DNA of 64,000 nt, from IMG/VR virus record IMGVR_UViG_3300034126_000020, positions 192,001 to 256,000 of that record; one strand, 5' to 3'. The translations under genes and the position numbers were made by a program. A model generated the notes under the pieces. The model ran no database searches. It was not told the DNA's origin and was given only the letters and a program-made list of their open reading frames with translations. How positions within the stretch are numbered: position 1 is the stretch's first letter; every line of letters starts with the position of its first letter. Source of the DNA: a virus. Its lineage: Duplodnaviria; Caudoviricetes. Positions 48,200 through 64,000 of the stretch are shown piece by piece.

Positions 48200-48233
48200 C
48201 ATAGAGGAGGAGCCACTGGCTCCTCCTCGTATG
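48200..48233. terminator. CATA...TATG-bounded hairpin at a convergent junction
   Basis: GAGGAGGAGCC-ACT-GGCTCCTCCTC flanked by CATA and TATG. Confidence 0.75.
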
Positions 48234-48236
48234 TTG

Positions 48237-49532
48237 TCACGCCACAGGAACCACGATCTCAACGGTGCTGGTGCTCCATTGGATCAGATCACCACGGGCG
48301 AAAGTCTGGGGCTCAGAAGAGACCCGCTTCTCATCGACCTTGGGCTGCAAGGTGTAGTCCGTGGTGTCCATGAAGCGGTGTTGACGCAGGTTGTTGTTGA
48401 CCCGGATCACCCACACGCCATTTTCTTCTTCGCTCACGTACGATGGCAACGCACCCAGTTCGGTACGCAATGGCCACAGTGGACGTTCGTCCAAGTAGAA
48501 CCGACCCGGCAAGTGAGTGCGGCCTGTCCCGATGACGTTGGTCACCAAGTGGTCAACCTCAATGCCCACGATGAACGACTGGCTCAGGGTCAGCAATTCG
48601 AGCATGCACTCGTTACTGTAGAACCCTTGCAGGTCATAGTCGAGTTCGTTGGTCGGTGACACATCGTGGAAGCGTTCCATCGACGTCTGGTCAATCAGGT
48701 AACGAGAGACCATGTACCGCTCAAGGAATGGCAACTTGCGCATCTCCACTTTCATGGAGTTACTGCCGATGACTTTGATGTCACTGGTAGCCAAGTGCAG
48801 GTAACCGCCGATGACGATACCCATCACCTTGTTGGTGGTGTCGAACGGGACCTTGACGTAGAAGTTGTACGACAGCTTCTTTGTCTCATCGGGCTGGTAG
48901 ATCATCTCAGGAGTGATCGAGGCAGTGTGAACCTTCCCCAAGTTCTTGAAGCTGATCAGACCAACCAGAGCGTTCTGAGAACGACGGAATGTAGTACCGC
49001 CATCCTTGATGTACGCGCCATCATTATCGGCGTCCAGTCGGTGCACCAGACCGTTAACCGTTGCCAAGCAATGCTGCTGCACGTCAACGTAGTCGATCTT
49101 GACCTCTTGGGCAGCATCAGCCTCAAGATCACGAACCAACCAGATGTCAGTCTTGTCAGAGTCGATCGCATCGTTGAAGGGCGAGCCGATAGGTACAGTC
49201 AGGTCGCACTTGTAACCTGCCTGCCAAGCATCCCGAGCCAACGCTTTATAAGTAGTCGGCTTCGGGATGCCCTTGACGGTAGGCAGTGTCAGGTTTGCGT
49301 TACTGGTCAGCCATTGGTTAACCGTGACGGTTTCCAGAACTGTGGCCAGACGATCATTCACGTCGGTCAATTTAAGCGTGTGTTTCTCGCCAAGGACCGG
49401 GTGAGTAAGGATCAGGTAGACTTCGGCATAAATGCGCAGGAGCGACTTGACCGGAATGTTGCTGACGTTCAGTTCCTCGAATTTCACGTCAGGCTTTCGG
49501 TGTTTCACCAAAGCGCCTTGGTATTCGTACAT
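48237..49532 (-). CDS. Putative virion structural (tail/baseplate) protein
   Basis: 431 aa with GGAG RBS; beta-rich; HCLATVNGLVH-type motif seen in phiKZ-like structural proteins. Confidence 0.6.
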   Translation of the reverse strand: MYEYQGALVKHRKPDVKFEELNVSNIPVKSLLRIYAEVYLILTHPVLGEKHTLKLTDVNDRLATVLETVTVNQWLTSNANLTLPTVKGIPKPTTYKALARDAWQAGYKCDLTVPIGSPFNDAIDSDKTDIWLVRDLEADAAQEVKIDYVDVQQHCLATVNGLVHRLDADNDGAYIKDGGTTFRRSQNALVGLISFKNLGKVHTASITPEMIYQPDETKKLSYNFYVKVPFDTTNKVMGIVIGGYLHLATSDIKVIGSNSMKVEMRKLPFLERYMVSRYLIDQTSMERFHDVSPTNELDYDLQGFYSNECMLELLTLSQSFIVGIEVDHLVTNVIGTGRTHLPGRFYLDERPLWPLRTELGALPSYVSEEENGVWVIRVNNNLRQHRFMDTTDYTLQPKVDEKRVSSEPQTFARGDLIQWSTSTVEIVVPVA

Positions 49533-49677
49533 TTATCGAGTCTCCCACGATAATGGTATGCCAGTTGTCTGATATTCAATATTAGACAAGCTTCGTTTTT
49601 AAGTAACGCCCCAAAGATTTCACGGCCCCTTTTCCAAGCGGCATCTGAACCGATGGAGATCCCAACGGAGAGCATAA

Positions 49678-52068
49678 ATGAGTACTGTCCTTCCACAATA
49701 CCCTTTCGATCCGACGGGTGTCGCGGCAACAAACAAGGTGACCGAGACCCAGTCGATTCGTTCGCGGGGTACGTTCGATCACTATTACATCATTCCGCGC
49801 CTCGGTCCGTTCTACGCCACAAGCGTAAAGCTGCGACTGTATCCGCAGGGTGCAAACGTCAACAACCCAGCGTTGGGTACTGACCTTCACGAAGGTGAGC
49901 ACTACAACTTCGGGTATCACTTCGCTTACGCGTCTCATACCATTGGTTTGCCGGTCTACGGCGCCATTACGTTCTACGATCGCAATCTCGAAGGTCAGCT
50001 CCGCATGGAGTACCAGACCATCGGTGACGATTGGGTACTGGATGATCAGGCGTACAGTGAACTCCTGCTTAACGTGGCGTTTAACCCACGCATCGCAAAC
50101 TGGGAACAGGTGGTTGAACTGCCTCGTGAATTCCCGGTGGTCAACCATGACTTCAGCATTGACGACTTTGTCGGCATGTCGGAAGTGGTCGATGAGCTGG
50201 CGGACATTGAGCGAGCATTGCTTCAACAAGGTGTCGGTGGCATCGCAGAACACATCGCCGACAAGTCCAACCCTCACGCTGTCACTAAAGCGCAGGTCGG
50301 ACTGAGCCTGGTGGATAACTTCCCTACTGCTACTGTAGGTGAAGCGACCGCTGCGGTAGCCAATAACCGTTTTATGACGCCTCTGCGAACCAAGCAGTTG
50401 ATCGACGCTGTCGCCACTGCCGCGCTCAATGCGCACATGGCTGACATGAACAACCCACACACCGTGACCAAAGCGCAAGTCGGTCTCGGTAGTGTGCAGA
50501 ACTTTGCCTTGGCCACACAGGCTGAAGCCGAAGCCGGTGCCTCGAACGCCCGTTACATGACTCCCCTGCGGACTCGTGAAGCAATCGAAGCCATCGCAGG
50601 TGCAAAGATCGACGGTCACATTGCGGACAAGAACAACCCTCACGGCACTACCAAAGCGCAGGTAGGTTTGGGTAACGTCATCAACATCGGCATTGCAACC
50701 AACGCGGCTGCTCTGTCCGGTACCGATGACTCAGGTATCATCACCCCTCGTCTGTTGTCGTTGGTGTTGAGTGAAACGGTAGGGTCGGGTGTTACTGACC
50801 ACATCAATAACTTCAACAACCCACACAGCACGACCAAGTCCCAAGTCGGCTTGGGCAGCGTTGAGAACTTCGGTATTGCTACACCTGCCGAAGCTGCTGA
50901 TGCGACTGCCAACAACAAGTACATGACGCCGCTGGCTGTTCGTCAAGCGATCAACGCCTTGGTGGGTGACAGTTCGAATGCTCACGTCAGTGACTTCAAC
51001 AACCCGCACAAAGTGACGGCTGCTCAGGTTGGTACGTACACCGAGCAAGAGATTGACGCTCTGCTGCTGGACAAGTTGGACGTGACTGCCGCGGCAGCTA
51101 ACGCCCTGAAGGTCTACGGCTTGACTCAAGCTCAGTTGGCTGCATGGGTAGGGACTCTGAAGGCAGGCGATACCATCCTGTTCGATGGCAAGACCTACAT
51201 CGATGTCATGAACACCTTCTTGGCCAGTAAGGTTGCTGACACGTCGAAGTTTGACGGGAAGACCTACGCTGAAGTGAAGGCCGACATGGCCGGTCAGGTG
51301 GCGGGCAGCAAGATTCAGTACGCTGTCCCTGAAATGCCTCTGCTGATCGACGGTACCGGTAACGAAGTCCCTGCTCCGGTTCACTGGATCTTGTTGGGTA
51401 GCTTCAAAGCCCCAATCAATGGTCTGCATGCAGACCTGACGTTGATGCTGACTGGTGGCCGTAACGATGAATCCCTCAACGCAGACAAGCAACACACTGC
51501 GCTGTTGGAGATCGGTGCGACCTACGACCAAGAAGGCGGTGTAGGTGACTTCACTCTGCATCCTCGTGGTGCGGCAGTCAAGCACTTGTCGGCTGGTGCG
51601 TACCCAATGACGTTGGGCTTTGTGGTTACAGGTACTAACCTGAACTCGAAGATCGATGTCTACCTCAAAGGGGTGGGTCAGCGCAACCCGATCAACATCA
51701 CTGAGCTGTCGGACAAGCTCTGGATTCCGGCTACGTTCCCATCGTGGGAAGATCTGGCTGACATCGTTACTGTGGAACCTACCGGGATTGTTTACCCGGC
51801 TGTCTTCACTGACGGTACAGCAGACATCGCGGCATTGCAGGCTTTCCAAGCCCGTCGTGATAACCCTCACGTTGTGACCAAAGCTCAAGTAGGGCTGGCA
51901 TCCACGCCGAACTACGCTGCGGCAACCAACGCCCAGGCGGTAACCGGCACTGCAACGAACCTGTTGATGACCCCTGCAACAACCACCGCCAAAGTCGATG
52001 ATTCTATCGGCAAGATGTGCGATGAGTTGATCACGGTCATTGATGCGTCGATGCCGCTGTTCGCTTGA
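49678..52068 (+). CDS. Tail fibre protein with HxxDxxNPHxxTKAQVGL repeats (phiKZ gp145/146-like)
   Basis: N-terminal YPFDPTG baseplate-anchor motif and six repeats. Confidence 0.8.
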   Translation: MSTVLPQYPFDPTGVAATNKVTETQSIRSRGTFDHYYIIPRLGPFYATSVKLRLYPQGANVNNPALGTDLHEGEHYNFGYHFAYASHTIGLPVYGAITFYDRNLEGQLRMEYQTIGDDWVLDDQAYSELLLNVAFNPRIANWEQVVELPREFPVVNHDFSIDDFVGMSEVVDELADIERALLQQGVGGIAEHIADKSNPHAVTKAQVGLSLVDNFPTATVGEATAAVANNRFMTPLRTKQLIDAVATAALNAHMADMNNPHTVTKAQVGLGSVQNFALATQAEAEAGASNARYMTPLRTREAIEAIAGAKIDGHIADKNNPHGTTKAQVGLGNVINIGIATNAAALSGTDDSGIITPRLLSLVLSETVGSGVTDHINNFNNPHSTTKSQVGLGSVENFGIATPAEAADATANNKYMTPLAVRQAINALVGDSSNAHVSDFNNPHKVTAAQVGTYTEQEIDALLLDKLDVTAAAANALKVYGLTQAQLAAWVGTLKAGDTILFDGKTYIDVMNTFLASKVADTSKFDGKTYAEVKADMAGQVAGSKIQYAVPEMPLLIDGTGNEVPAPVHWILLGSFKAPINGLHADLTLMLTGGRNDESLNADKQHTALLEIGATYDQEGGVGDFTLHPRGAAVKHLSAGAYPMTLGFVVTGTNLNSKIDVYLKGVGQRNPINITELSDKLWIPATFPSWEDLADIVTVEPTGIVYPAVFTDGTADIAALQAFQARRDNPHVVTKAQVGLASTPNYAAATNAQAVTGTATNLLMTPATTTAKVDDSIGKMCDELITVIDASMPLFA
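50251..51030 (+). repeat. Five tandem ~61-aa fibre repeats (a sixth lies at ~51850-51920)
   Basis: H-x5-NPH-x2-TK[AS]QVGLG units; first two His starts at 50251 and 50434 (183 nt apart). Confidence 0.85.
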
Positions 52069-52138: not shown

Positions 52139-53584
52139 ATGAGTGTACCACCGATTATCCAGTACCCTCTTGACCTAGACGGTACGTCACTGACGAACAA
52201 GATTGTCGGTGAGCGACGGGAAATCAGTACAAACACGGCTCGCGCGTTTGTTCCCAAGGCAGGTCCTTTCTACACCAGTTCGTTTGTCATCATCAACGCA
52301 GACACCGGGGTTCCCTTGGTGCCGGTTGACGACTACGTGCTGGCCCAACCGTTTTCTCAGGCTTCCTTGCGAAGCGGTAAAGACGTGCAGTGCGCTGTGG
52401 TCCTTAAAGTGCAAGCCCCTATCACGGTGATCATGGATTACCAAGTGGTGGGTGGTGAGTACTCCTGGAACCTGAAGGCGCTGGCTGACTTGATCGAACA
52501 GGTCAACCTCGATGAACGCCCTATCAAATGGGGTTCCATCATCGGACGTCCTACGGCGTATCCGCCGGCTCCTCACATCCACGACATCGGCGATACATAC
52601 GGCTGGGAATACGTGGTGTGGCAACTGGAGCGAATCACCAACGCGATCTTGGTCGGTGACGAAGCGTCTCACGATGAACTGCGTCAACAGATGCAATTCA
52701 TTCGGGATCAACTGCAAGCGAACATCGATGCAGTGGACCTGAAGATCGACAACCACCTGAACGATTTCAATAACCCTCACAACACCACGAAAGCTCAAGT
52801 GGGTCTGGGGTCTGTTGAGAACTATCCGGTGGCATCGAACGCTGAGGCTCTGGCGGGTGTCGTTGGTAACCGTTACATGACGCCTACGCTGGTGTCGATT
52901 CTGGCCAACCGTATCTCTCAGGAGATCACGGATGCTCACGAAGCCAAGAAGAACAACCCTCACGCCGTTACAAAGGCACAGGTTGGTCTGGGCAGCGTAG
53001 ACAACTTCGCCACGGCTTCGCAAGCCCAGGCAGAAGCCGGTACAGCCCCTGATGTGTTCATGACACCTCAGCGCACGTACCAAGCGATCATGGTGTTCGC
53101 AGGCAACAAGATCAACCAGCACGTTGCTGACGTCAATAACCCACACCAGACCACCAAGGCGCAAGTCGGTCTCGGTTTGGTTGACAACTTCCAGACCGCG
53201 TCGGTGGCTGAAGCTCAGCAAGGTATCCTGAACGATCGCTTCATGACACCTGCTCGTACCAAGGCGGCTATTGATGCCATGGTCGGCAACGTGATCAACC
53301 AGCACATCTCGAACTTCAACAATCCGCACAACACGACCAAAGCGCAAGTGGGGTTGGGGAACATCCCGAACAACATCACTCGTTCTCGTGGGTTGAACTC
53401 CGACGATTACCTGCTGACCGCTGGCGGCATCTTCGATCACGTGAACTCTGCGGATCACGATGCTCGTTACGCACCCAAGAACACCCCGGGTGTCGACTGC
53501 TCTGTTCACTGGAACGGTTCGGCGGCCTACGTGTGGGGCGGCGGTGCTTGGCGTCAAGTGTGGCCACCGCTGTGGCAAGATTGA
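52139..53584 (+). CDS. Second tail fibre paralogue with four NNPH repeats
   Basis: YPLDLDGTSLTNKI N-terminus paralogous to the upstream fibre; Trp-rich C-terminus WRQVWPPLWQD. Confidence 0.8.
   Translation: MSVPPIIQYPLDLDGTSLTNKIVGERREISTNTARAFVPKAGPFYTSSFVIINADTGVPLVPVDDYVLAQPFSQASLRSGKDVQCAVVLKVQAPITVIMDYQVVGGEYSWNLKALADLIEQVNLDERPIKWGSIIGRPTAYPPAPHIHDIGDTYGWEYVVWQLERITNAILVGDEASHDELRQQMQFIRDQLQANIDAVDLKIDNHLNDFNNPHNTTKAQVGLGSVENYPVASNAEALAGVVGNRYMTPTLVSILANRISQEITDAHEAKKNNPHAVTKAQVGLGSVDNFATASQAQAEAGTAPDVFMTPQRTYQAIMVFAGNKINQHVADVNNPHQTTKAQVGLGLVDNFQTASVAEAQQGILNDRFMTPARTKAAIDAMVGNVINQHISNFNNPHNTTKAQVGLGNIPNNITRSRGLNSDDYLLTAGGIFDHVNSADHDARYAPKNTPGVDCSVHWNGSAAYVWGGGAWRQVWPPLWQD
52754..53375 (+). 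repeat. Four tandem ~61-aa fibre repeats
   Basis: NNPHNTTKAQVGLG, NNPHAVTKAQVGLG, NNPHQTTKAQVGLG, NNPHNTTKAQVGLG. Confidence 0.85.
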
Positions 53585-53608: not shown

Positions 53609-54115
53609 ATGTTTCAACGGCTGGATAACCTGTTCGCTGAGATCAGTGAAGAACTGCTGGACCTTGACGTCCTGATGATGAGTCCTTTTGTGTACGAGCA
53701 GGGCTTGGTGAAGTTTATCAAGAACGGCGGTAGTCATGACGTATTCACTATTTCCGATTACCTTGAGATTGACGACAAGCCAGTCAAGGTAGAAGGCATG
53801 GAACGCCTCAACGGAACCATGTGGAAAGTCTGTAAGCGGTTGGCAGATCACTTCGGCCATGAAGGCCCGGTGACCTGTCACCTGTTTATATCCCCTAAAG
53901 ACGGGGTGAGTTTCCCGATGCACACTGACCTGGATGATGTGGTTATTCACATGGTCACAGGACAAAAGACTTTCGAGTCAACGGACGGGTCGATGGACCT
54001 TGTAGCCGGTGACTCCATTTACATCCCGAGAGGCACGAAGCATCGTGCCATCAACACTGACAGTTCCCTTATGCTGAGTTTTGGCTTGGAACTCTTCACG
54101 GAAGCCAAACTGTGA
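53609..54115 (+). CDS. JmjC/cupin 2-oxoglutarate-Fe(II) oxygenase (Cupin_4/RoxA-like)
   Basis: SFPMHTDLDDV (HxD), GQKTF, GDSIYIPRGTKH (distal His). Confidence 0.85.
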   Translation: MFQRLDNLFAEISEELLDLDVLMMSPFVYEQGLVKFIKNGGSHDVFTISDYLEIDDKPVKVEGMERLNGTMWKVCKRLADHFGHEGPVTCHLFISPKDGVSFPMHTDLDDVVIHMVTGQKTFESTDGSMDLVAGDSIYIPRGTKHRAINTDSSLMLSFGLELFTEAKL

Positions 54116-55149
54116 ATCAAAAGACCATTTACGTCAAGACCACCGGTACTTGCAACCTGAACTGTCAGCACTGTTTCACCAACGGGAAGAACGGGGATAA
54201 GACCCACTTCAACCCAGAGGCCACAGTGGCCTGGATCAAAGACTTTATGTCTCGGTATCCGGAAGACACCCACTACCACATCGAGTTCCATGGTGGGGAG
54301 CCTTTCCTCGTGCCCTTGGAGAAGATGCAGATCGTAGCGGATGCGTTCATCGAACAAGAGAACGTGTCCATGTGTGCCAACAGCAACTTGACCTTCAAGA
54401 TGACTGATGCGCACATCGACTTCATCAAGCATTATTTTGGTGGTTACATCGGGACCAGTTGGGATCATTGGATTCGCTGGAGCAACGAGAAGCAGGTGAA
54501 CCTGTGGAAGAGCAATCTTCGGTTGCTGAAGTCCCATGGCATTGACATTGGTCTCAAGGTGTCTGTCAGTCGTCCTCTGATTGAGACCACGCCTGATTGG
54601 TTCATTGATCAGATGGAAGCCATTGCGGTGGACGATGTGTCGCTTGAGCGTCTGACCCACGACGGCAGTGCTGAGGTCAACCTCGACATCTTCCCCAACA
54701 ACGAGGCTCAGGATAACTGGTACCTCGCGCTTTATTTGCGTTACAAAGAAAGGAACCCGCGCGTAAAGATTCGCACCTTGGACATCATCGAGCAAAAGCT
54801 CAAGATGAAAATGGTAAGAGTCGACACCAACTGCCGGAACTGTGAGCAGAACCTTGTGACGATGAACCCAGATGGGTCGTTGTCGGGTTGCCCTAACGCA
54901 GCCACCAAGCTTCACCATGCCAAGTTAGAGCAGGGCGTCGATGCGTTCCTCAATTCCGACAGTCGGATTGATGAGATCGTAAGCGAAGTGACGCGGAGTG
55001 ATACGTGCATTACGTGCGACGTGTACGATCTATGTGGGGGTGATTGCCATCGTCTCCCATGGCAGAAAGGTCGCTGTGGTGGTCTGAAAAACACACTGCG
55101 TTATTTGTCTGGTCGTGCTCAACAGTCCAACCTGATTATAAAGGTGTGA
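54112..55149 (+). CDS. Radical SAM/SPASM protein 1
   Basis: CNLNCQHC (CxxxCxxC), FHGGEP, C-terminal C..C...GCP...CxxC....CGGDC...C. Confidence 0.92.
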   Translation: MNQKTIYVKTTGTCNLNCQHCFTNGKNGDKTHFNPEATVAWIKDFMSRYPEDTHYHIEFHGGEPFLVPLEKMQIVADAFIEQENVSMCANSNLTFKMTDAHIDFIKHYFGGYIGTSWDHWIRWSNEKQVNLWKSNLRLLKSHGIDIGLKVSVSRPLIETTPDWFIDQMEAIAVDDVSLERLTHDGSAEVNLDIFPNNEAQDNWYLALYLRYKERNPRVKIRTLDIIEQKLKMKMVRVDTNCRNCEQNLVTMNPDGSLSGCPNAATKLHHAKLEQGVDAFLNSDSRIDEIVSEVTRSDTCITCDVYDLCGGDCHRLPWQKGRCGGLKNTLRYLSGRAQQSNLIIKV

Positions 55150-55150
55150 T

Positions 55151-55687
55151 ATGGCCGAAGTAATTACTCGGAACCGGATGGCCGTCAACGCCAACTCCAT
55201 TCTGAAGAACAACATGAACAGCGGAATCAGTTGGGGGACGAATAACTATCCTGCCAACTCCATTCCCGGCTGGTTCGCTGGTACGACTGCTGGGGTAGAC
55301 TTCACTGCCACTGTAGCGCACTTCCAAGCCGGTAAACCCAGTGCGTCTCAGACAGTAGCTGTGCTGCGTAACATCGCAAACGTCTTCGGTGGCGTGCGGA
55401 CTACGCGGATCGTCATCTACTACAACAACAACGGAAACCTGCAAGTCCAGTACGATGGAACTGCGGTGGCCAACACTATATACGGTGTAGGTGATTTCGC
55501 CTCCCAAGCCAACCTCGGTGGCCTTGGCGTCAACACTCCTTTGTCCTTGAACATGTTCAACGCTGCCTGTCTGGCGCTTTGGAACGTGTACGTGGCCAAC
55601 TGCCGTAACCAAGTCCTTACCCTGACCAACACCGTTTGCCACACGAGCTGCCACGTAAGTTGCCACTCGTCCCGCGGTCGTCGGTAA
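55151..55687 (+). CDS. Asn/Gly-rich protein with C-terminal CHxS repeat (CHTSCHVSCHSSRGRR); candidate radical-SAM substrate
   Basis: 178 aa; starts 2 nt after the rSAM1 stop; triple C-H-x-S at the extreme C-terminus. Confidence 0.75.
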   Translation: MAEVITRNRMAVNANSILKNNMNSGISWGTNNYPANSIPGWFAGTTAGVDFTATVAHFQAGKPSASQTVAVLRNIANVFGGVRTTRIVIYYNNNGNLQVQYDGTAVANTIYGVGDFASQANLGGLGVNTPLSLNMFNAACLALWNVYVANCRNQVLTLTNTVCHTSCHVSCHSSRGRR

Positions 55688-55704
55688 TCATCGAGGAGAA
55701 CATC

Positions 55705-56514
55705 GTGGACAAGACTACCGAAGTGGAAGTCAAGAAAGAGCCTAACAAGCTGCCAGTACCGCGCTTTGCACCCATTGAAGGTGAGCTGGTTGTCATTGAG
55801 ACCACCGTGCCTGTCCCCATCATGGTCATGCGTCGTAAGTTCACCGAGAACATCAAGTTCATCGTGGACTACGACAACAGCCGTCACAAAGGCAAGGTGT
55901 TCATCACGTACATCACCAACATGGGTGTTGAATGTGAACTGCGGTTCGGGTCCGTTGAGTCTAAACTGGAACTGGTGAAAGAGTATCTTCACGTCACCTC
56001 CATGGTGGACCTGCCGCAATTGGAAGACGTCGTGATCAATCTGTTGCTGGCAGCGACGGGCAAGCCTTACCACTTGGACTTCAATCCTCTGGACTTCATT
56101 CTGGAGAACGAAGAGATCCTTCAGGTATGGATGCGGAACTGCTGCATGGTCCCGACGTACGCCCTGCACAGTTACCCGCCCACTGAGGACCAGGTCAAGA
56201 ACTACGAAGAGATCCCAGGTGATGACCTGAGCGGTATCAACTTCGTGCACTTGGCCAGCCACATCTTGTTCCCGATGTTGATTTCTGACGTCCCTGAAGA
56301 GCACTGGTGCTGGAACAAGACGTTCTTCAAGGAGTACTGCTTCGGTGGACACAACCTGTTCTACTACACGCAGTCGGAGAACAACCCGTTCTTCATGGCG
56401 TTGCTGGTGATCAGTGAACCGGAAGCAGTGGGTGATCTGGGGATTGCAGCGGCTACCATCCTGCAAGAAAACCACACTTACCTAAAGGGCCTCGAACATG
56501 TACCATCTGCTTAA
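55705..56514 (+). CDS. Hypothetical protein of the radical SAM cluster
   Basis: GTG start with GAGGAG RBS; stop overlaps the next gene. Confidence 0.7.
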   Translation: MDKTTEVEVKKEPNKLPVPRFAPIEGELVVIETTVPVPIMVMRRKFTENIKFIVDYDNSRHKGKVFITYITNMGVECELRFGSVESKLELVKEYLHVTSMVDLPQLEDVVINLLLAATGKPYHLDFNPLDFILENEEILQVWMRNCCMVPTYALHSYPPTEDQVKNYEEIPGDDLSGINFVHLASHILFPMLISDVPEEHWCWNKTFFKEYCFGGHNLFYYTQSENNPFFMALLVISEPEAVGDLGIAAATILQENHTYLKGLEHVPSA

Positions 56515-57553
56515 CCAGACGTACGTCGATTCTGAAACACGGATTGACCGTACAGCAAATACGATCACCATCTCGCCACAGGTGGGGTTCGAATACATCC
56601 CTCAGCCTAACGAGAAGGTCGGGACTCACTTGGGTTACGGGACCAGTCTGGATGCTTTCACGCCAGAACAGTTCCATGACCTGATGGTGGCGGCTAATGA
56701 GCTGAACGAGAAGGTTGTCATCTACAGCGATGGCCGGACCTACGCTCGCATGTACGCCATGTTGGTCAAAGCGGTGTTCCCGAACATCGACTTCGACAAC
56801 TTCTGCTGGTTCATGCTCTGCAAGAAAGCCACGTTCAACTCGATCATCGTGGCCATGGGCGAACCCCGGGTTGACGTGCTGTCGAGCGTGGTGATCAACC
56901 GGGCTGTCTGCAAAGAACTGTTCGAAGCTGAAGAGCCTCTTCAAGAGACCTTCAATGAACTGGTCGCTGACGACGCTGATGCACTGTCGCTGGAATGGCA
57001 CATTGCTCGGTTGCGGACTGAAGGCATTTCGGGAAAGATCCCAAAGGCAACCAAGACCATCTTGCGCCGCATCGCTCTGTCGAACGCGCATGATGCCATG
57101 GATGTCTGGGCCCGTCACCTGACCCGTCCTCAGTTCTGGGACATGGCCGGTGCTGACATGGACACTCTGCTCAATGCACCGTCCGTGTTTGAAGGGTGCT
57201 TGGGTCTGCCTCACTTGGCCTCCCAACAGTTGCTGCGTCCTGGCCTGTACGATTTCCGTCCGAACGACACGTGGATCAAAGGCATGCTGCGTGAAGCAGT
57301 GGACCTGATGCACCGTCTTGAAGATGGTTCGTCGGCTGAACGTGCCGCTGAGATCCTGCGTCTGCTGGAAGATGACCGCAACATGGTCGAGGCAGCTAAC
57401 TGTCTGGACCGGGTCAACCGGATGTTCAATGGCGAGATGCGTATTGCCCTGGCCATGCGTGACACCGGCAAGTACGACGAGAACCTCATTCGTCACATCC
57501 TGAACATGGAGCTGTCTGTTCTCAAGGCAGCCTTGGAAGGGGCGACCTGGTAA
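56498..57553 (+). CDS. Hypothetical protein of the radical SAM cluster (351 aa)
   Basis: Overlaps the upstream gene; TAATG coupling to rSAM2. Confidence 0.75.
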   Translation: MYHLLNQTYVDSETRIDRTANTITISPQVGFEYIPQPNEKVGTHLGYGTSLDAFTPEQFHDLMVAANELNEKVVIYSDGRTYARMYAMLVKAVFPNIDFDNFCWFMLCKKATFNSIIVAMGEPRVDVLSSVVINRAVCKELFEAEEPLQETFNELVADDADALSLEWHIARLRTEGISGKIPKATKTILRRIALSNAHDAMDVWARHLTRPQFWDMAGADMDTLLNAPSVFEGCLGLPHLASQQLLRPGLYDFRPNDTWIKGMLREAVDLMHRLEDGSSAERAAEILRLLEDDRNMVEAANCLDRVNRMFNGEMRIALAMRDTGKYDENLIRHILNMELSVLKAALEGATW

Positions 57554-58548
57554 TGGAACTGATCCCTGTAGTGAACATACTCAGGGATAAGAAGGGTCGC
57601 CGTAAGGAGGCCCATCTGATCCTGTTCGAATGGTGCAACCTGCGGTGTTCCTTCTGCCATCAGGACCACGATTCCAAAGTGGGCTTCGATGCGGTTGACA
57701 TGATCCGTAAAGCACAAACGCTGATCGACGAAGTGGACAGTGAATCGGAGATCGTGATCAACATCACCGGTGGTGAACTGTTCATGGACGATGTACCGGA
57801 CTGGATGTTCGGTTACTACCTGACGATTGGCAGAATGCTGCTCGAGAACTTCCCTCATGCCAAATTGGTCTGGGGGACGAACTTGATCTTCAAGGATGTC
57901 TGGCGAGTGGCTCGTTTGATCCACATGCTGAGACCGTATGGTAAAGTCGTTCTGGCTACGTCGTATGATCCTGCTGGGCGGTTCAATGAGATGCAGCGTA
58001 TTCGCTTCTTCGAAGTGCTTGAAGAAGTTGCTCCTCTGGTTGAAACGGTCAACGTGGTGATCACCAAGCAGAACATCGAGTCCTTCCTTGCGGGCCGGGA
58101 AGGTCGGGAAGTGGCTTGGCTCTGTGAGCAGTTCGACGTGTACTTCGATCACTACATCCCTAGCCAGATGTACGAGTACATTCAGCCGGATGAAGAGTTG
58201 ATCAGCGCCTTGTACCTGCACCTGAACAAGAAGTACCCCAACTCCTACCCGATCAAGGACTGGAAGGCTAACGTGATCAATGAGACCACGTGCCGTTCTA
58301 CCAAGATCATCAACAAGGACGGCGTTGTCAGTACTTGTTGGTCTGAGGCAGGCAAGGGTGCGATCTTGGATGAGGCTGAAGGCTTGCGGGCTAAGGACGA
58401 AGCAGAGATTGCGTTCGTGGAACATTACGAGTGCTTCTCCTGTGAGTACTACACCCGGTGTGGCTTGCGGTGCTTCCTCCATGACACTGTCTTGGGTGAG
58501 AAGTCCAAGGTGTGCAGCATCAAGACCATGTTCGACGAAATCTTGTGA
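57553..58548 (+). CDS. Radical SAM/SPASM protein 2
   Basis: CNLRCSFC, ITGGE, C-terminal TC...TC...CFSC....CGLRC...C. Confidence 0.92.
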   Translation: MELIPVVNILRDKKGRRKEAHLILFEWCNLRCSFCHQDHDSKVGFDAVDMIRKAQTLIDEVDSESEIVINITGGELFMDDVPDWMFGYYLTIGRMLLENFPHAKLVWGTNLIFKDVWRVARLIHMLRPYGKVVLATSYDPAGRFNEMQRIRFFEVLEEVAPLVETVNVVITKQNIESFLAGREGREVAWLCEQFDVYFDHYIPSQMYEYIQPDEELISALYLHLNKKYPNSYPIKDWKANVINETTCRSTKIINKDGVVSTCWSEAGKGAILDEAEGLRAKDEAEIAFVEHYECFSCEYYTRCGLRCFLHDTVLGEKSKVCSIKTMFDEIL

Positions 58549-58553
58549 CACGG

Positions 58554-58586
58554 CATAAAGGCAGGGGCTGATGCCCCTGCCCTATG
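58554..58586. terminator. CATA...TATG-bounded hairpin at a convergent junction
   Basis: GGCAGGGGC-TGAT-GCCCCTGCC flanked by CATA and TATG. Confidence 0.75.
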
Positions 58587-58592
58587 TTCGCT

Positions 58593-59615
58593 TTACAGGC
58601 CGGCCTTCTTGATAAGGTTCAGCAGCAGTTCAGAGTGCAGCGCTTGAGCGAGGCCGATTGGGACGCCCTTCATACCAAACTGGTTGCAGTATTCGAAGAT
58701 GCCCCACTTCTCATCTTCGGTGATAAACAGATCCACTGACGACAATGGACCAATCACCGTCAGTACCAGTTCACGCAGGCCTTCAAGATCAGCGCCGCCC
58801 AGTACGTCATTGATAGCGCAGATGTCGTTACCCTTGGCGCTGTTGGTTTCAGAGCCCGTGGCTTGAGCCAGACCGGTGTTGTCCTTGTCACGGATGTTGC
58901 GACGTTGGCAGTACGCGATCTCACCGCCTTGACCTGTCAGGAGACGGTATTCTAACTTGATGCCGGGTACATAGTCCTGAATGCAGAAGCCCTGAGACTG
59001 GATGGCTGTCAGACCTTCGTTCTCGAACTTCTCAGCAGAGGTTGCATACTTGAACGACGGGTCGTACTTATGCAGCTCAGGCAAGACGTCAGCCAGTTGA
59101 GTACGGCCTGTCTTTAGGCCATCAAGAACGTCCACCACAGCAGTCAATGGAATCTTGTCCGGGTCAATGAGGAACTGACCAATACCACGAGCCCCGTCCA
59201 GCGGCTTGACCACGACGCGGTTGTCCGGGTTCACCAATTGACTGAAGCCGTGCAGTTGTGGGTTGTGATGCATCGTCAGCGGATAGAAGTTCTTGAACAG
59301 GTGTTCGTTTTCTTCATCGCTGTTCAGTTCCACCGCAGCCAAGAGACGCAGTTGTTGCTCGACCTTGTTGTACCGCTTGATGGTGTGCATCCGACGGGGA
59401 GGGAGCAGGTTCTGCATGTCCATGCCGTCGATCTTCAAGGAGCCGTCATTGACGACCACGTCGAAGTTGAAGCGGGCATGTCCACCGTTGATGCTCATCT
59501 GTGGATCACGGTGGAAGTAGACCTCGTAGTTACCGTTATCCAGTGACATCCCTTGACTCAGTACATCCCAATTGTTCATGGCATGGGAGGCCACTACGAC
59601 ATTGATACGCTTCAT
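58593..59615 (-). CDS. ATP-grasp (RimK-like) ligase
   Basis: VVVKPLDGARGIG, IQDYVPG...EYRL, SVDLF...GIFEYCNQFG. Confidence 0.75.
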   Translation of the reverse strand: MKRINVVVASHAMNNWDVLSQGMSLDNGNYEVYFHRDPQMSINGGHARFNFDVVVNDGSLKIDGMDMQNLLPPRRMHTIKRYNKVEQQLRLLAAVELNSDEENEHLFKNFYPLTMHHNPQLHGFSQLVNPDNRVVVKPLDGARGIGQFLIDPDKIPLTAVVDVLDGLKTGRTQLADVLPELHKYDPSFKYATSAEKFENEGLTAIQSQGFCIQDYVPGIKLEYRLLTGQGGEIAYCQRRNIRDKDNTGLAQATGSETNSAKGNDICAINDVLGGADLEGLRELVLTVIGPLSSVDLFITEDEKWGIFEYCNQFGMKGVPIGLAQALHSELLLNLIKKAGL

Positions 59616-59701
59616 GAAACACTCCTTTATTGGCTATAGGAGACGAACCCTATTTAAAACTTTACTGGATCATTCCTATGAATATATCTGGAGGGTTAAC
59701 C

Positions 59702-59872
59702 ATGGCTAAGTGTTGGACTCCTATACAGGAACGCTACCTGCGCTTCAAGATGGCAAGTCCGTTAAGACGTCTTGAGATGTACCTTGAATGCGGACCTAAA
59801 CCTGCTCCTCGGAAATCCCCTGTAGGTGAGCCGCATTGGAGAGACCTTCTTAACGAACAACGAGCGAGATAA
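59702..59872 (+). CDS. Small basic hypothetical protein (56 aa)
   Basis: GGAGG RBS before MAKCWTP. Confidence 0.5.
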   Translation: MAKCWTPIQERYLRFKMASPLRRLEMYLECGPKPAPRKSPVGEPHWRDLLNEQRAR

Positions 59873-59876
59873 TTCC

Positions 59877-60095
59877 ATGACCGATTCCATTCTGCCAATA
59901 CGTCGCCGTAAACCACTTGTGCCTCGTTTTCCACGTACGCTCGGTGATAGCGATTGGCTGTTGAAGAAGTTAAGAGAAGCGAACAGTCCAGAGAACGAAC
60001 AGTTCCGTCGTGACTACCTCGGTCAATGGACCGTACAGCCTGCTGATAAGGAAAAGCCCGATGGACCTGATCGTCAAACCGACCGTCAACTGTAA
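59877..60095 (+). CDS. Small hypothetical protein (72 aa)
   Basis: Starts 4 nt after the previous stop; overlaps the rSAM3 start. Confidence 0.45.
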   Translation: MTDSILPIRRRKPLVPRFPRTLGDSDWLLKKLREANSPENEQFRRDYLGQWTVQPADKEKPDGPDRQTDRQL

Positions 60096-61146
60096 CTTCA
60101 AGTGCACGTTCTGCTCGAGCACTCATCTCTCTGAAGACGCCACCGACATTGTTGAGTTGGCCCAGATCGAGGAGTTCATCCAGCGGTTCCACACGCACAC
60201 GATCATCATCAACGGCGGTGATCCTCTGATGATGCCTCCAGAGTACTACTGGAAGCTGATCGAGATCCTCGACAAGCATGGCAGTGAGGCCAGCATTAGT
60301 TTCACCTCTAACCTGTGGCCGTTCTACAAGAAGCCAGAGTTATGGGAGGAGTTGCTCAAACACCCCCGTCTGGGCGTCACAACGTCCTTCCAGTACGGCG
60401 ACAAGCGTTTGAAGGGCGATGGTACAGTCTTCAGCGAAGAGGACTTCTGGAACGTCTCAGACATGTTCCTGGAGCGCATCGGTTACCGCCCGGGTTTCAT
60501 TGCGGTGATCGACAAGGACAATGAACACACAGTCCTTGATACGGTGCGTCTGGCTCAGAAGATGGACGTCGAAGCCAAGATCAACCATGTGGTCGCTTCG
60601 GGCCCCGTGGTTGTGAAGAAAGGGATTGCCATGGGCAGTATCGACAACTTCTTTACGCAGGCTGACATCTACGGCCACTACATCGAGATCTACAACGCCG
60701 GCTTGATGGAGTGGGAATACAACACCAAGCAGATGGCGAAGAAGCTCAAGCATCAGCACACGACCTGTCCATTGGCGCGTGAGTGTGATTCGGGCATCCG
60801 TACACTGCAACCGGGTGGTGGTTACTTCTCCTGTGGTTCTTTTGCAGATGACGGGGCGTACCCGATCGACTTCAAAACCGAGATGGACGGTGGGATGGTC
60901 TATCCATTGCAGAACCAGCCGGAACTGCAAAGCATGAAAGACTCGTGCTACATCTGTCCGATGTTCAACATCTGTAATGGGTGTCGGAAGACGATCTCTG
61001 ACACCAAGCGCATGGGGCTGACTGAACAGCACTGTCGCAAGATGAAGAGTCAAGCTGCCCAGATCATCGAAATCAATGGCATGTCCGCTCACCTAGAGCC
61101 GACGCCGTACGAAGATGAATCCCTTCCCTTGATTGCACGAGGTTGA
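60061..61146 (+). CDS. Radical SAM/SPASM protein 3
   Basis: MDLIVKPTVNCNFKCTFC, INGGDP, C-terminal CP....C...SC...CxxC....CNGC...C. Confidence 0.92.
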   Translation: MDLIVKPTVNCNFKCTFCSSTHLSEDATDIVELAQIEEFIQRFHTHTIIINGGDPLMMPPEYYWKLIEILDKHGSEASISFTSNLWPFYKKPELWEELLKHPRLGVTTSFQYGDKRLKGDGTVFSEEDFWNVSDMFLERIGYRPGFIAVIDKDNEHTVLDTVRLAQKMDVEAKINHVVASGPVVVKKGIAMGSIDNFFTQADIYGHYIEIYNAGLMEWEYNTKQMAKKLKHQHTTCPLARECDSGIRTLQPGGGYFSCGSFADDGAYPIDFKTEMDGGMVYPLQNQPELQSMKDSCYICPMFNICNGCRKTISDTKRMGLTEQHCRKMKSQAAQIIEINGMSAHLEPTPYEDESLPLIARG

Positions 61147-61147
61147 C

Positions 61148-61363
61148 ATGTCCTTTCCTATCTTGGATCAAATGGCGTTCTTTCCACCCGGTCATGAAGT
61201 CAAGCTTCAGATCCCTGAGGTCTTGAAGAAGATCGTCCTCAAGCGCTGCGTTGAAAGCGTTGATGACTTCCTCGACGTGGTCAGTGATTCCCGGGGTCTT
61301 AAACTGAGCCCTTATCAACGAGATTTCTACAAATGCCTAAGTCAAGAATCAACGTCTCGCTGA
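61148..61363 (+). CDS. Small hypothetical protein (71 aa) in the radical SAM cluster
   Basis: Starts 1 nt after the rSAM3 stop; overlaps rSAM4. Confidence 0.6.
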   Translation: MSFPILDQMAFFPPGHEVKLQIPEVLKKIVLKRCVESVDDFLDVVSDSRGLKLSPYQRDFYKCLSQESTSR

Positions 61364-62265
61364 ACCCGTGGTACTACTGCAACTTCCGGTGTGACTTCTG
61401 TTACCTCACCGAGCAACAGTTGAGCGACAAGCAGTTCATCCCGCTGGACGTCTTTGAACAACGCATCGACGAACTGCTGGAGCACTTCGAGATCGGTCAC
61501 ATCGACATCTACGGTGGGGAAGTCTTCCTGTTGCCTCAGCAGTACCTGATGGACATCAAAGACATCCTGCACATGCGGGGCATTGATGACATCGTGGTCG
61601 TCACCAACCTGTCGCATGTACCGGACATCGCTCATGACCCAGCGTTCGACATCTCGGTGTCGTATGACTTCGGGGCTCGTGAGAAGCACGACCAGGTGTT
61701 GCAGAACATCTTCCAACTCAGCAACAAGTTCAACATCCTGACGTTGGCCGGCCGTACGTTCTTGGATCTGGTGACCCCAGACGAATACGTGCAGACCATG
61801 AACGGGTTCCCACATCTGAAAGGCTGTGAGATCAAACCGTACAGTTCTAACCAAGCCAACGATCAGGACGTGTCGTTTAAGGAATTCGAAGAGTTCGTCT
61901 GGGCTGTCATCAAACACCCCGAACGTAACTTCTATTTCGAGAACGAGACTCAGGTCAAGGAAGCGGTAGACGGTAGCCGCAATGCTTTCTCTGATGACCA
62001 CATCTACATCACTCCAACCGGCGATTACGCCGTACTGGAGTTTGACAAGAATGACCGCGAGTTCTTCCTGACAGTAGACGGCATCGAAGGATACCTCGAC
62101 TGGTGCGGGAAAGAGTATGAGCGAGTAGCGGACAATCCGTTCTGTGCATCGTGTACGTTCCACGGCGGGTGCCTCTCTGAGCACTTGCGGGAAGTCACAA
62201 CCCTTGAGAACTCCTGTAACGGGTTCCGGGGTCTCTTGTTAAAGTGGGTGGAGCATGGAACTTAA
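61333..62265 (+). CDS. Radical SAM protein 4 (SPASM/twitch-like C-terminus)
   Basis: CNFRCDFC, IYGGE, C-terminal CASC....CLSEH...SC. Confidence 0.9.
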   Translation: MPKSRINVSLNPWYYCNFRCDFCYLTEQQLSDKQFIPLDVFEQRIDELLEHFEIGHIDIYGGEVFLLPQQYLMDIKDILHMRGIDDIVVVTNLSHVPDIAHDPAFDISVSYDFGAREKHDQVLQNIFQLSNKFNILTLAGRTFLDLVTPDEYVQTMNGFPHLKGCEIKPYSSNQANDQDVSFKEFEEFVWAVIKHPERNFYFENETQVKEAVDGSRNAFSDDHIYITPTGDYAVLEFDKNDREFFLTVDGIEGYLDWCGKEYERVADNPFCASCTFHGGCLSEHLREVTTLENSCNGFRGLLLKWVEHGT

Positions 62266-63313
62266 ACACGTAGAGCATCGGCAGCGATTGGAGATCACCC
62301 TCGACATCTTCCGAGGGTGTCAACACCATTGTTCAGGTTGCATGATTGATAAACAGTTGGGGGGAGACGTCGATGACATCCCTCAGTTGGCAATCATGAT
62401 CAAAGAGATGGTTGATGCAGGGTATGTTGCGTTTGACATGGGGATCGGTCCCACTGACTACATGTCTTCTGATAACACCTCTGACGTCATGACCCATCCG
62501 GTCTTTCAAGAAATGGCTCAGTGGTTTCATCAGGTCACGTTCAATGCTGCCTTCCTCGAGAAGGACATGGACAAGTACAAGACCATGTGCGAAGAGATCG
62601 ACCAAGCCATTCCGGGTAAGGCCGTTCGCTTCCTGATGCCTGCGGCTCCGCACTTCTTCAAGAGCGAGAAGTTCGGGGACATGATCAGTGAGAAGCTTGC
62701 GTTCGTCAAAGAGCACCTGAAGGTCGCTTACTTGAACGAGGCAGGCTTCGTGGTCAACTGCACTCACGAGACGGTGGGTGAAGACTTCGATGACTTGATG
62801 AAGAATGGGTTCGCTGTGGACTTCCCGGTGGACAAGGACGACATCTTGAACATCCCCTATGGTCGTCTCAAGGTCAAAGACCTGATGACCGCTCAGCGGA
62901 TCACCCGGATGTCTCACCGCATCACGCAGTTCTACTCAGGACTGAATGGCACGGATGAACGTCGTCGCAATCCTGACCTTTGTTACCACACCGGGACGAT
63001 GGTCAACCTGTTGTACACGGCAGGCAAGCTGTATTGGGTGCCTTTCCTTAAAGACGACTGTCCGTTCCTTGAGGACGAGTTCGTCGTTCCTCGCCCCTGG
63101 TCTATGGATAACCTTCTGAACACGCGTCAGAAGGCCATGGAGCGCGCTATGGAGTATCTGAAGGACACTCCGTGCATGAGTTGCGTCTACATGAGTAGTT
63201 GCAGCGAAAAAGGGATCATCAACATCATGGAACGGATGCAAATCCGTGAATGCCTCGTGGGGTTGCAGTATGTCGACAATGATTCAGAGCAGAGCGTTCA
63301 ACCTAACGCTTGA
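62255..63313 (+). CDS. Divergent radical SAM-like protein 5
   Basis: CQHHCSGC; no GGE motif (IGPTD instead); C-terminal CMSC....C...C. Confidence 0.75.
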   Translation: MELKHVEHRQRLEITLDIFRGCQHHCSGCMIDKQLGGDVDDIPQLAIMIKEMVDAGYVAFDMGIGPTDYMSSDNTSDVMTHPVFQEMAQWFHQVTFNAAFLEKDMDKYKTMCEEIDQAIPGKAVRFLMPAAPHFFKSEKFGDMISEKLAFVKEHLKVAYLNEAGFVVNCTHETVGEDFDDLMKNGFAVDFPVDKDDILNIPYGRLKVKDLMTAQRITRMSHRITQFYSGLNGTDERRRNPDLCYHTGTMVNLLYTAGKLYWVPFLKDDCPFLEDEFVVPRPWSMDNLLNTRQKAMERAMEYLKDTPCMSCVYMSSCSEKGIINIMERMQIRECLVGLQYVDNDSEQSVQPNA

Positions 63314-64000
63314 GATTCTGCAAGGCTGTAAGTTCCAATGCGTCGGTTGCATGGTGGACAAGGACTTTGATCCAGGTCCCTTCAACAAAGACCGTCGAGA
63401 ACTGTTGGACATGGTCGATGACATGAAAGCTGCTGGCTATCGCCTGCGAGAGTTCACTGTCGGGCCGGTGGACGTCATTGCCTCCAAGGCAGGTGTGGAC
63501 ATCCTTGACCATCCGTTGATCTTCCAACTGGCTCAGCGCTACGATTCGATGGTGCTGCCGTTGGCTCTGTTGACGGACGACGGGTTGGAAGAGCTGTGTG
63601 AGAAGGTCAACTTCTTGATGAAGGGTAAATCCTTCACCATCGCTACACCGTTCCCGCTCAAGAGCACGTACAACCCCAAGCATCAGGACCTGATCAACCG
63701 CCGTGTGCAGTTCATCATTGACCACTTGCCGGATGTGAAGTTCGAGTTGCTTTACTTGACCGTGAACATGACGGGTGACTCCATTGACCAGTTCAGTGTC
63801 GAGACCAATCGTGACATCCATCAGCTGGACTTTGGGGTCAAACGCTTGGTGGAGTACGTGTTCCCTCATGTGCGCAAAGGGTTCGACGACCTGCTCAACC
63901 GTTCTGCCTTCCTGAGGGCCTTTGGTAAGTTCTGTGACGTGATTCACGATTGCAAGGACACCGAGTTCACCAGGTACCTGATCAAGCCTCTGGCGGACTC
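63279..64000 (+). CDS. Divergent radical SAM-like protein 6 (truncated by the window end)
   Basis: Not in the track. Manual translation MIQSRAFNLTLEILQGCKFQCVGCMVDKDFDPG...VGPVD..., open to 64000; paralogue of protein 5. Confidence 0.75.
   Translation, partial: MIQSRAFNLTLEILQGCKFQCVGCMVDKDFDPGPFNKDRRELLDMVDDMKAAGYRLREFTVGPVDVIASKAGVDILDHPLIFQLAQRYDSMVLPLALLTDDGLEELCEKVNFLMKGKSFTIATPFPLKSTYNPKHQDLINRRVQFIIDHLPDVKFELLYLTVNMTGDSIDQFSVETNRDIHQLDFGVKRLVEYVFPHVRKGFDDLLNRSAFLRAFGKFCDVIHDCKDTEFTRYLIKPLAD

Follow-up and report, generated by a model that had tools for sequence, protein, structure and literature searches.

A jumbo-phage cassette of radical SAM enzymes and oxygenases as a candidate maturation system for a Cys-His-tailed protein

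What use does a phage have for a run of radical S-adenosylmethionine (SAM) genes placed directly behind its tail-fibre genes? This question is raised by a 64,000-nucleotide stretch of viral DNA (hereafter the window), positions 192001-256000 of the 276,810-bp IMG/VR virus record IMGVR_UViG_3300034126_000020, whose direct terminal repeats indicate a complete jumbo phage. On the plus strand, two fibre-like genes are followed by a cupin/JmjC-like gene, the radical SAM gene R1, a gene for a 178-residue protein with a Cys-His-rich C-terminus (the tailed protein), the accessory genes A292 and A351 and a second radical SAM gene, R2; next come a minus-strand ATP-grasp-like gene and then, again on the plus strand, R3, R4, R5 and R6. 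The whole genome encodes six radical SAM genes. An initial annotation of the window had described a JmjC-like gene and six CxxxCxxC genes directly behind two co-oriented fibre genes, and all were recovered in place, the CxxxCxxC genes starting at 54112, 57553, 60010, 61333, 62255 and 63246. It had further supposed that these enzymes mature one of the phage's own proteins. Comparative sequence analysis leads us to consider the tail of the 178-residue protein a reasonably probable substrate of the cassette enzymes.

The tailed protein and the distribution of its cassette

The tailed protein (55151-55687, plus strand) has a CHxS-repeat tail, as had been read initially; residues 163-178 (encoded by 55637-55684) comprise three such units and a closing RGRR, and it is this end that the family conserves. 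Its relatives numbered 82 in a word-indexed search, and an exhaustive profile search extended the family to 641 clusters at 50% identity. The C-terminal pattern CH..CH..CH..R.RR was present in 203 of 224 family members sampled, with Cys, His and the three Arg fixed, and in an alignment of 50 diverse sequences pairwise identity was 78% in the last 16 columns versus 27% in the body. In Ralstonia phage RSL2, Agrobacterium phage Atu_ph07 and several metagenomic loci, the tail is kept although the body is scarcely recognisable. An AlphaFold2 model with a mean predicted local distance difference test (pLDDT) score of 86 showed an alpha/beta body (residues 1-163) and a disordered tail, residues 170-178 scoring below 50. 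The body had no match in the PDB, and further searches (VIA-wide, AFDB clusters, BFVD and ESM Atlas) returned its own family only. No other open reading frame (ORF) in a long-frame scan of the 276,810-bp genome had a CH..CH motif or an RxRR-stop end. The protein sequence has no visible signal peptide or peptidoglycan-binding domain, and no evident cleavage or export signal.

We fetched 80 IMG/VR loci through the tailed protein and ran the window proteins by phmmer. The tailed protein and the enzymes co-occurred in fixed order in all 80 sampled viral loci, with lower counts for single genes: R1 type in 78, A292 in 77 (always directly after the tailed protein), R2 in 77, the cupin in 74, R4 in 72, R3 in 71, a conserved 144-residue protein (H144) in 62, a 2-oxoglutarate (2OG) oxygenase in 54 and A351 in 47. 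The order cupin-R1-tailed protein-A292-(A351)-R2-R3-R4-H144-2OG oxygenase was kept even where the tailed protein was 25-30% identical, so that the comparison of neighbourhoods proposed in the initial annotation bears out a conserved arrangement. The tailed protein is the organising element of this cassette.

Carriers include cultured jumbo phages of Pseudomonas, Ralstonia, Burkholderia, Agrobacterium and Sinorhizobium, and the known hosts of cassette-bearing isolates are all Pseudomonadota. The cassette occupies 8-14 kb per phage, and the same core is found in RSL2 and in the 490-kb T4-like phage Atu_ph07. The sole close cultured relative of the window phage is Pseudomonas phage pPa_SNUABM_DT01 (265.5 kb; DT01), which has the whole cassette region in identical gene order, with 56-75% protein identity (tblastn, two proteins compared), and in which the tailed homologue is gp065. 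When cellular genomes from 185,579 species were scanned for the peptide patterns of the tail or of an N-terminal body motif, 22 matches and two confirmed relatives emerged, one on a 4.3-kb contig and one on a 92-kb contig of a metagenome-assembled genome, each with a cassette. Both cassette-bearing contigs may be phage DNA. The cassette is found nearly exclusively in phages, among which it appears to be widely conserved, with a function undescribed in the literature searched.

The two cellular contigs and two of the viral loci show variations on this layout. The 4.3-kb contig, from a Dysosmobacter segnis assembly, encodes a repeated tail module (L090:3-359) of eight CH units in three blocks split by NVV and followed by ARGRR, after which lie homologues of A292, A351, R2 and R3. 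The 92-kb contig, from a Rhodobacteraceae assembly, encodes two tandem short paralogues of 136-140 residues, each with a CH-repeat tail (L091:6053-6876), next to R6/R5-like, cupin, R1, R3, R4, H144 and R2 homologues in rearranged order. On one viral contig a tryptophan-halogenase-like gene (L033:4856-6451; phrog_2928, E 2e-144) stands a few genes upstream of the cassette, and in RSL2 a dihydrofolate reductase gene (L008:18039-18575) is inserted between the R2 and R3 homologues.

Enzymes, partners and flanking genes

The radical SAM genes share a CxxxCxxC motif, at residue 14 in R1, 28 in R2, 28 in R3, 16 in R4, 22 in R5 and 28 in R6, and orthologues retain the catalytic Cys, GGE/GGD and the SPASM Cys at 95% or more. 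R1 (345 residues; 54112-55149, plus strand) has three cluster Cys, a GGE motif (residues 61-63) and eight C-terminal Cys that are invariant among 34 orthologues. R2 (331 residues; 57553-58548, plus strand) has GGE at 73-75 and seven C-terminal Cys conserved to at least 95%. R3 (60010-61146, plus strand, with a likely start at ATG 60061) has GGD at 69-71 and is the best-conserved enzyme of the cassette: among 63 orthologues, its eight C-terminal Cys and more than 100 positions reach at least 95% conservation. R4 (310 residues; 61333-62265, plus strand) conserves C16/C20/C23, a GGE motif and, in a four-Cys C-terminus that is twitch-like or a partial SPASM, C271/C274/C280/C295. A CX2CX5CX2-3C motif is present in R1, R2 and R3 with every Cys conserved, and R4-R6 keep four C-terminal Cys.

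R5 (352 residues; 62255-63313, plus strand) and R6 are an atypical tandem pair, 24.5% identical, that lack GGE and mostly fail Pfam while keeping CxxxCxxC and the four C-terminal Cys, in R5 the conserved C307/C310/C316/C333. R5 had no Pfam match. R6 (63246-64000, plus strand) is cut by the window end; completed from L007:246-1295, it has 349 residues and ends at window-equivalent position 64295. A Cys-rich C-terminus had been claimed for five of the radical SAM genes, and completed R6 has one also, so that all six do. Since R5/R6 occur in 28 of the 80 loci, chiefly those nearest to the window phage, R5 is clade-specific.

Profile matches placed these proteins in the radical SAM superfamily to different degrees. 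Against Pfam Radical_SAM (PF04055; gathering threshold 29.5 bits), R3 (51.1 bits) and R4 (34.0) scored above and R1 (27.5), R2 (21.6) and R6 (about 20, E 5e-4) below, and R1 passed the SPASM model TIGR04085 (29.2 bits, cut-off 27). R1-R4 all matched the phage radical SAM family phrog_1802, with E from 9e-33 (R2) to 3e-54 (R1). Together with the conserved catalytic and SPASM Cys and GGE motifs, these matches show that the cassette is not a chance pattern. In the longer BLASTP alignments R1-R4 are 20-23% identical to one another, R2 giving short matches with R3 and R4, and each forms a separate orthologous group across loci, which points to ancient, functionally distinct paralogues. With catalytic motifs intact, the cassette enzymes look functional.

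The closest solved relatives of R1 are 8vpo, anSME (4k37) and CteB (5wgg). Its relatives (anSME, CteB and YydG, and the PapB, YhhB, AmcB, DarE and DynA models) all act on peptides or proteins, with scores far below the family cut-offs. No assignment to the His-Xaa-Ser system, whose models the initial annotation had suggested, or to sactipeptide, ranthipeptide, cyclophane or anSME maturases held: all NCBIfam scores were far below cut-offs, and membership among the HXS and darobactin maturases was rejected on the same grounds. No RRE/PqqD-like domain was detected in the cassette, partners without a recognised fold being present in its stead.

These partners and the oxygenases complete the cassette. 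The cupin/JmjC-like protein (168 residues; 53609-54115, plus strand), a putative Fe(II) oxygenase, matched JmjC_2 (PF08007) at 35.8 bits (cut-off 22), over profile positions 88-124 of 127, and Cupin_2 at 32.1 bits (cut-off 27.2). It carries an HxD...H triad (H105/D107/H145), conserved to at least 95% among 67 orthologues, and K120, and weakly matched the histidyl hydroxylase MINA53 in the PDB (E 0.0076). A292 (55705-56514, plus strand; phrog_20767, E 4e-33) has an open frame from 55636 and a likely GTG start at 55705, preceded by a GAGGAG motif. Its AlphaFold2 model (pLDDT 89) gave one clear match in fold searches of the PDB (Foldseek), VIA-wide and AFDB clusters, an uncharacterised AFDB protein (E 7.8e-13). 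A351 (56498-57553, plus strand) had no Pfam, NCBIfam or PHROG match, and Atlas feature searches with A351, H144 and the tailed protein returned nothing usable. The cassette extends about 4 kb beyond the window end, where the remainder of R6, three 2OG-Fe(II)_Oxy_5 proteins and H144 are encoded, alongside a 249-residue protein (L007).

Tight coupling by overlaps, also noticed at first reading, is real: the cupin/JmjC-like gene and R1 overlap in GTGA (54112-54115) and A351 and R2 in TAATG (57551-57555). Between R1 and the tailed-protein gene, separated by 1 nt, lies a TGA-T-ATG junction (55147-55153). A GC-rich hairpin at 58560-58585, read from the inverted repeat GGCAGGGGC...GCCCCTGCC, sits between the convergent R2 and ATP-grasp genes and has the look of a bidirectional terminator; as a putative terminator it would divide the plus-strand run into two transcription units.

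The ATP-grasp-like gene itself (340 residues; 58593-59615, minus strand) had been counted as a component of the cluster and does not belong there. Its Pfam GSH-S_ATP score barely exceeds the cut-off (23.1 versus 23 bits), and it is absent from DT01, RSL2 and Atu_ph07 and present in 3 of the 80 loci, which marks it as a local insertion outside the cassette core. An unrelated R2K-clade ATP-grasp gene (PF18299, E 9e-29; L007:4691-5431, minus strand) and an SLT transglycosylase gene with a peptidoglycan-binding domain (L007:3861-4637, plus strand) lie downstream, about 3.9-5.4 kb past the window end; DT01 has both, and elsewhere they are not conserved with the cassette (R2K in 0 of 80 loci, within the flanks). 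We therefore rejected ATP-grasp genes as tailoring components of the kind found with peptides that the ribosome makes and that are modified after translation (RiPPs).

Upstream, the two fibre-like genes are F1 (796 residues; 49678-52068, plus strand), with matches to the tail protein family phrog_13857 (E 5e-138) and the virion structural protein family phrog_2163, and F2 (481 residues; 52139-53584, plus strand), with matches to phrog_2163 (E 1.6e-130) and phrog_13857 (E 7.7e-66). F1 carries repeated NNPH..TKAQVGLG units and is syntenic with DT01 PA10_00069. Before them, a minus-strand gene (48237-49532) encodes a 431-residue protein that shares 74% identity with DT01 PA10_00070. Two plus-strand ORFs overlap this gene, 48231-48659 and 48666-49553, both probably spurious.

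Location at the fibre genes and competing explanations

The position behind fibre genes recurs across carriers of unrelated phage lineages. Homologues of F1/F2 precede the cassette in 24 of the 80 loci; at distant loci another fibre-like gene (phrog_19602/phrog_22593) stands immediately upstream, behind a giant phrog_358 protein, and at five loci (L043, L045, L050, L056 and L062) the cassette follows fibre-like genes non-homologous to F1/F2. In DT01 and RSL2 it likewise stands behind fibre-like genes, and in Atu_ph07 it adjoins baseplate-wedge, virion and giant structural genes. The Peptidase_S74 intramolecular chaperone is a hallmark of trimeric fibres and spikes, and in one variant of the tailed protein, P0194, four CH units lead directly into such a domain (E 1.5e-11). 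Of the radical SAM genes, the P0194 locus keeps R1 and R3 only, with A292-like and A351-like genes and a 2OG oxygenase; this single lineage weakly hints that R2, R4 and H144 may need a free RxRR end. A further variant, P0163, has an N-terminal Gly_rich_2 domain. Its locus adds a B12-binding radical SAM protein. A variant cassette with such an enzyme, of 521 residues (L096:16420-17985), also has four 2OG oxygenase-like genes, which suggests additional C-methylation chemistry in that lineage.

The published particle proteome of Atu_ph07 includes the tailed homologue. Table S5 of that study lists gp170 with a mass of 31.89 kDa, eight unique peptides and 35% coverage (PMC6102473), and the mass that we computed for the tailed homologue is the same 31.89 kDa. 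The gp170 peptides were found in gel bands 1-9 with a peak in band 1, together with proteins of 87-127 kDa, whereas bands 7-8 are where other proteins of about 30 kDa are most abundant; the table names no cassette enzyme (PMC6102473). This pattern fits a stoichiometric product that forms a very stable or covalent high-mass species.

From these lines of evidence, we think it on the whole probable that the cassette enzymes mature, in a RiPP-like manner, the Cys-His tail of a phage protein associated with the fibre or baseplate. The tail is a candidate substrate because of the size of its family, its conservation, the fixed neighbourhood, the intact enzymes and its being the only such ORF in the genome. 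The folded body of the 178-residue protein would serve as a recognition handle, probably held by the non-catalytic A292, A351 and H144, and the disordered tail would be threaded into the SPASM-type enzymes R1-R4. These would abstract hydrogen atoms and covalently alter the three Cys-His-x-Ser units; as a best guess, they would introduce thioether cross-links and/or C-C or C-S cross-links centred on His, which would join a chain to itself or to others in a multimer. Hydroxylation of His, Arg or Ser would fall to the cupin/JmjC-like protein and the 2OG oxygenases, and R5 and R6 would be clade-specific extras. Production of the tailed protein would be late, alongside the fibres, and once matured it would join the particle in association with the fibre or baseplate, possibly locked covalently into a multimer. 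Our confidence in any specific chemistry on the tail is low, and localisation of the tailed protein to the virion or fibre is a tentative assignment that may well prove wrong.

Several points weigh against this explanation. RiPPs usually have a conserved leader and a variable core; a conserved tail on a variable body is the reverse of that pattern, and suits a metal-binding or docking tail too. Every NCBIfam maturase score is far below its cut-off. In the RSL2 record, ORF057 and ORF065 are marked as virion structural proteins and the tailed ORF068 is not. The Atu_ph07 particles were purified with polyethylene glycol only, and RecA-like protein, SSB, terminase and ribonucleotide reductase are also listed (PMC6102473), so that detection of gp170 is no proof of a structural role. 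Since the loading buffer names no reductant (PMC6102473), disulfides could explain the high-mass gp170 band. What the initial annotation had supposed, that the phage enzymes mature a protein of the phage's own, probably a fibre-associated one, nevertheless gains from the fixed gene order, the conservation of the tail, the fibre position and the proteome homologue; the ATP-grasp component and any assignment to a known family fell away.

The impurity of the proteome evidence also leaves room for a matured protein that is not structural and acts, as an effector in the host envelope or on DNA, in superinfection exclusion, to assist entry of the phage's DNA, or to decoy or counter an HXS-type defence. 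A precedent exists in the HXS antiphage system, in which HxsA, a protein with five H-x-S repeats, is matured by the radical SAM enzymes HxsB and HxsC with HxsD (Li et al., Nat Commun 2026, PMC13128918). Maturation includes a change of +8 Da on an SHRSS motif that requires His and Ser; the mature product keeps phage DNA from entering, and HxsA binds DNA through its basic repeats (PMC13128918). The phage tail similarly has three H-x-S units and an RGRR end; HXS is found to 99.7% in Pseudomonadota (PMC13128918), the phylum of the known cassette-phage hosts; and HxsC is among the better, though weak, NCBIfam matches of R2 and R3. Such an effector is nevertheless improbable in our judgement, given a tailed protein in which no signal peptide or peptidoglycan-binding domain is visible, HxsA, HxsB, HxsC and HxsD models that are unmatched at their cut-offs, a conserved location right behind fibre genes and an S74 fibre-chaperone variant that suggests a particle fibre.

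An explanation that we find more doubtful still has the Cys-His tail bind metal or Fe-S, or serve in docking, instead of being a substrate. The protein would be a carrier of clusters, an electron donor or a scaffold to the radical SAM enzymes, or would bind metal ions in a trimeric fibre tip, with the enzymes acting on another protein, a fibre or a small molecule. Three Cys and three His within 12 residues make a plausible metal site, phage fibre tips and spikes such as T4 gp37 hold His-coordinated iron, radical SAM enzymes require a reductant, and conservation of tail over body suits a binding motif equally well. The tail is, however, predicted to be disordered and lies at the extreme C-terminus, unlike known ferredoxin or cluster-carrier folds; adjacent Cys and His would face opposite sides of a beta strand, making joint axial coordination awkward; the tailed protein is far more abundant than the enzymes in the Atu_ph07 particle preparation; and there is no alternative conserved candidate substrate, F1/F2 being confined to a minority of loci. 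Very improbable is a non-protein product (a glycan, a cofactor or a modified nucleotide or DNA base), with the tailed protein as unrelated cargo of the fibre module. R2-R4 do have weak N-terminal matches to QueE, MoaA, NrdG and viperin models, and PADLOC returned only weak viperin-type matches of the cassette to the shared radical SAM core; yet the model matches span the shared CxxxCxxC region alone and are far below cut-offs, the cassette has no glycosyltransferase, nucleotide-binding, TGT/DpdA-type or sugar-activating gene, and it would go unexplained why the cassette so strictly accompanies the tailed protein and is translationally coupled to it. For the lack of supporting genes we rejected a DNA- or nucleotide-modification pathway, the scenario that the initial annotation had set against its own proposal and for which we found no support.

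Maturation of the tail by the cassette enzymes also has a bolder form, in which four or more radical SAM enzymes rebuild the tail of a particle protein at the fibre/baseplate interface into a cross-linked, possibly metal-binding structure by chemistry akin to the +8 Da change of HXS. This we regard as rather unlikely; if it were true, phage and host would share a rare radical chemistry and apply it from opposing sides to DNA entry, and it would be the first enzymatic radical SAM maturation of a virion protein. Radical SAM/SPASM enzymes are known to mature peptides and a few cellular proteins, and no radical SAM-matured virion or virion-associated phage protein was described in the literature searched. 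Modification of the tail by the enzymes, which we hold most likely, would be a new kind of phage protein maturation. It would bring new enzyme chemistry, with four orthologous radical SAM lineages, two oxygenase types and at least two partners without a known-fold match, and a new determinant of host contact or particle stability, and it may be the phage-side counterpart of HXS defence. With 641 clusters of the tailed protein, the cassette is not limited to one genome, and its presence in cultured jumbo phages makes these proposals directly testable.

Comparison with known systems

Phage genome papers merely list the radical SAM genes (PMC8066314, PMC11898562, PMC8541153, PMC5468394), one terms them "highly unusual" (PMC12390700), and in a comparative review of jumbo phages the word "radical" is absent (PMC7824862). 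We found no description of the cassette's function in the literature searched.

SPASM maturases give the best profile and structure-sequence matches of R1-R3. With anSME (TIGR03942, PDB 4K36-39), the thioether enzymes CteB and PapB and the triceptide maturases YhhB, AmcB and FxsB, R1-R3 share CxxxCxxC and a SPASM region of seven or eight Cys, and their substrate would be a folded protein, as with anSME or QhpD, and not a short peptide. The differences are that cassette proteins score 10-50 bits against cut-offs of 340-650, that the tail motif has no counterpart among the described cores and that four orthologous radical SAM lineages and oxygenases stand together in one cassette. Membership in anSME was rejected: R1 scored 37.8 and R3 34.7 bits against 349.45, and the tail lacks a C-x-P/A-x-R motif (the anSME substrate motif tested was (C/S)-x-(P/A)-x-R). 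Membership in PapB (NF047865), YhhB (NF041707), AmcB (NF041718) and FxsB (TIGR04269) was rejected likewise; these models gave R1 its best matches, at 37-49 bits against 340-445. By these scores R1 and the thioether and cyclophane maturases would share a broad clade only.

The oxygenases of the JmjC_2/Cupin_4 type (MINA53, NO66 and YcfD/RoxA) have in common with the cassette cupin the signature of the double-stranded beta-helix, the HxD...H iron triad and a conserved Lys. They hydroxylate His or Arg in proteins, and both residues are invariant in the phage tail. The cassette cupin differs in its length of 168 residues, in the absence of dimerisation and winged-helix domains and in a match that covers the last 37 profile positions. 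S74 fibre-tip proteins of the endosialidase and T5 pb1 type resemble the family in that P0194 has an S74 domain after its CH units and the family adjoins fibre genes; in contrast, the window protein and 91% of the sampled members lack S74 and end in RxRR. We know of no radical SAM maturation of S74 fibres.

HXS is the nearest parallel in organisation. In both systems a protein synthesised by the ribosome bears H-x-S units in tandem and is accompanied by two or more radical SAM enzymes and small non-catalytic partners; the His and Ser of the unit are essential in HxsA and near-invariant in the phage tail, basic residues are abundant in both, and both are tied to the phage entry interface. They differ in that the cassette is phage-encoded and located in a fibre module, and in that it has four to six radical SAM enzymes, a cupin and 2OG oxygenases in place of HxsB and HxsC. 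The phage tail consists of three units at the extreme C-terminus, each preceded by an invariant Cys and followed as a group by RxRR, whereas HxsA has five internal units and a peptidoglycan-binding domain. The best score for HxsB (TIGR03978) was 27.3 bits against 370 (R1) and for HxsC (TIGR03977) 27.1 against 267.9 (R3). The tailed protein did not match the HxsA model TIGR03979, for which the sole match in the genome lay elsewhere (16.8 bits against 121.65, with similar matches in control genomes), and no match to HxsD arose when the cassette proteins were run against NCBIfam. With HxsA, HxsB and HxsC models unmatched and no match to HxsD, the likeness to HXS is limited to motif and logic. Set beside these systems, the cassette appears to work like a radical SAM protein-maturation system that is a member of no defined family.

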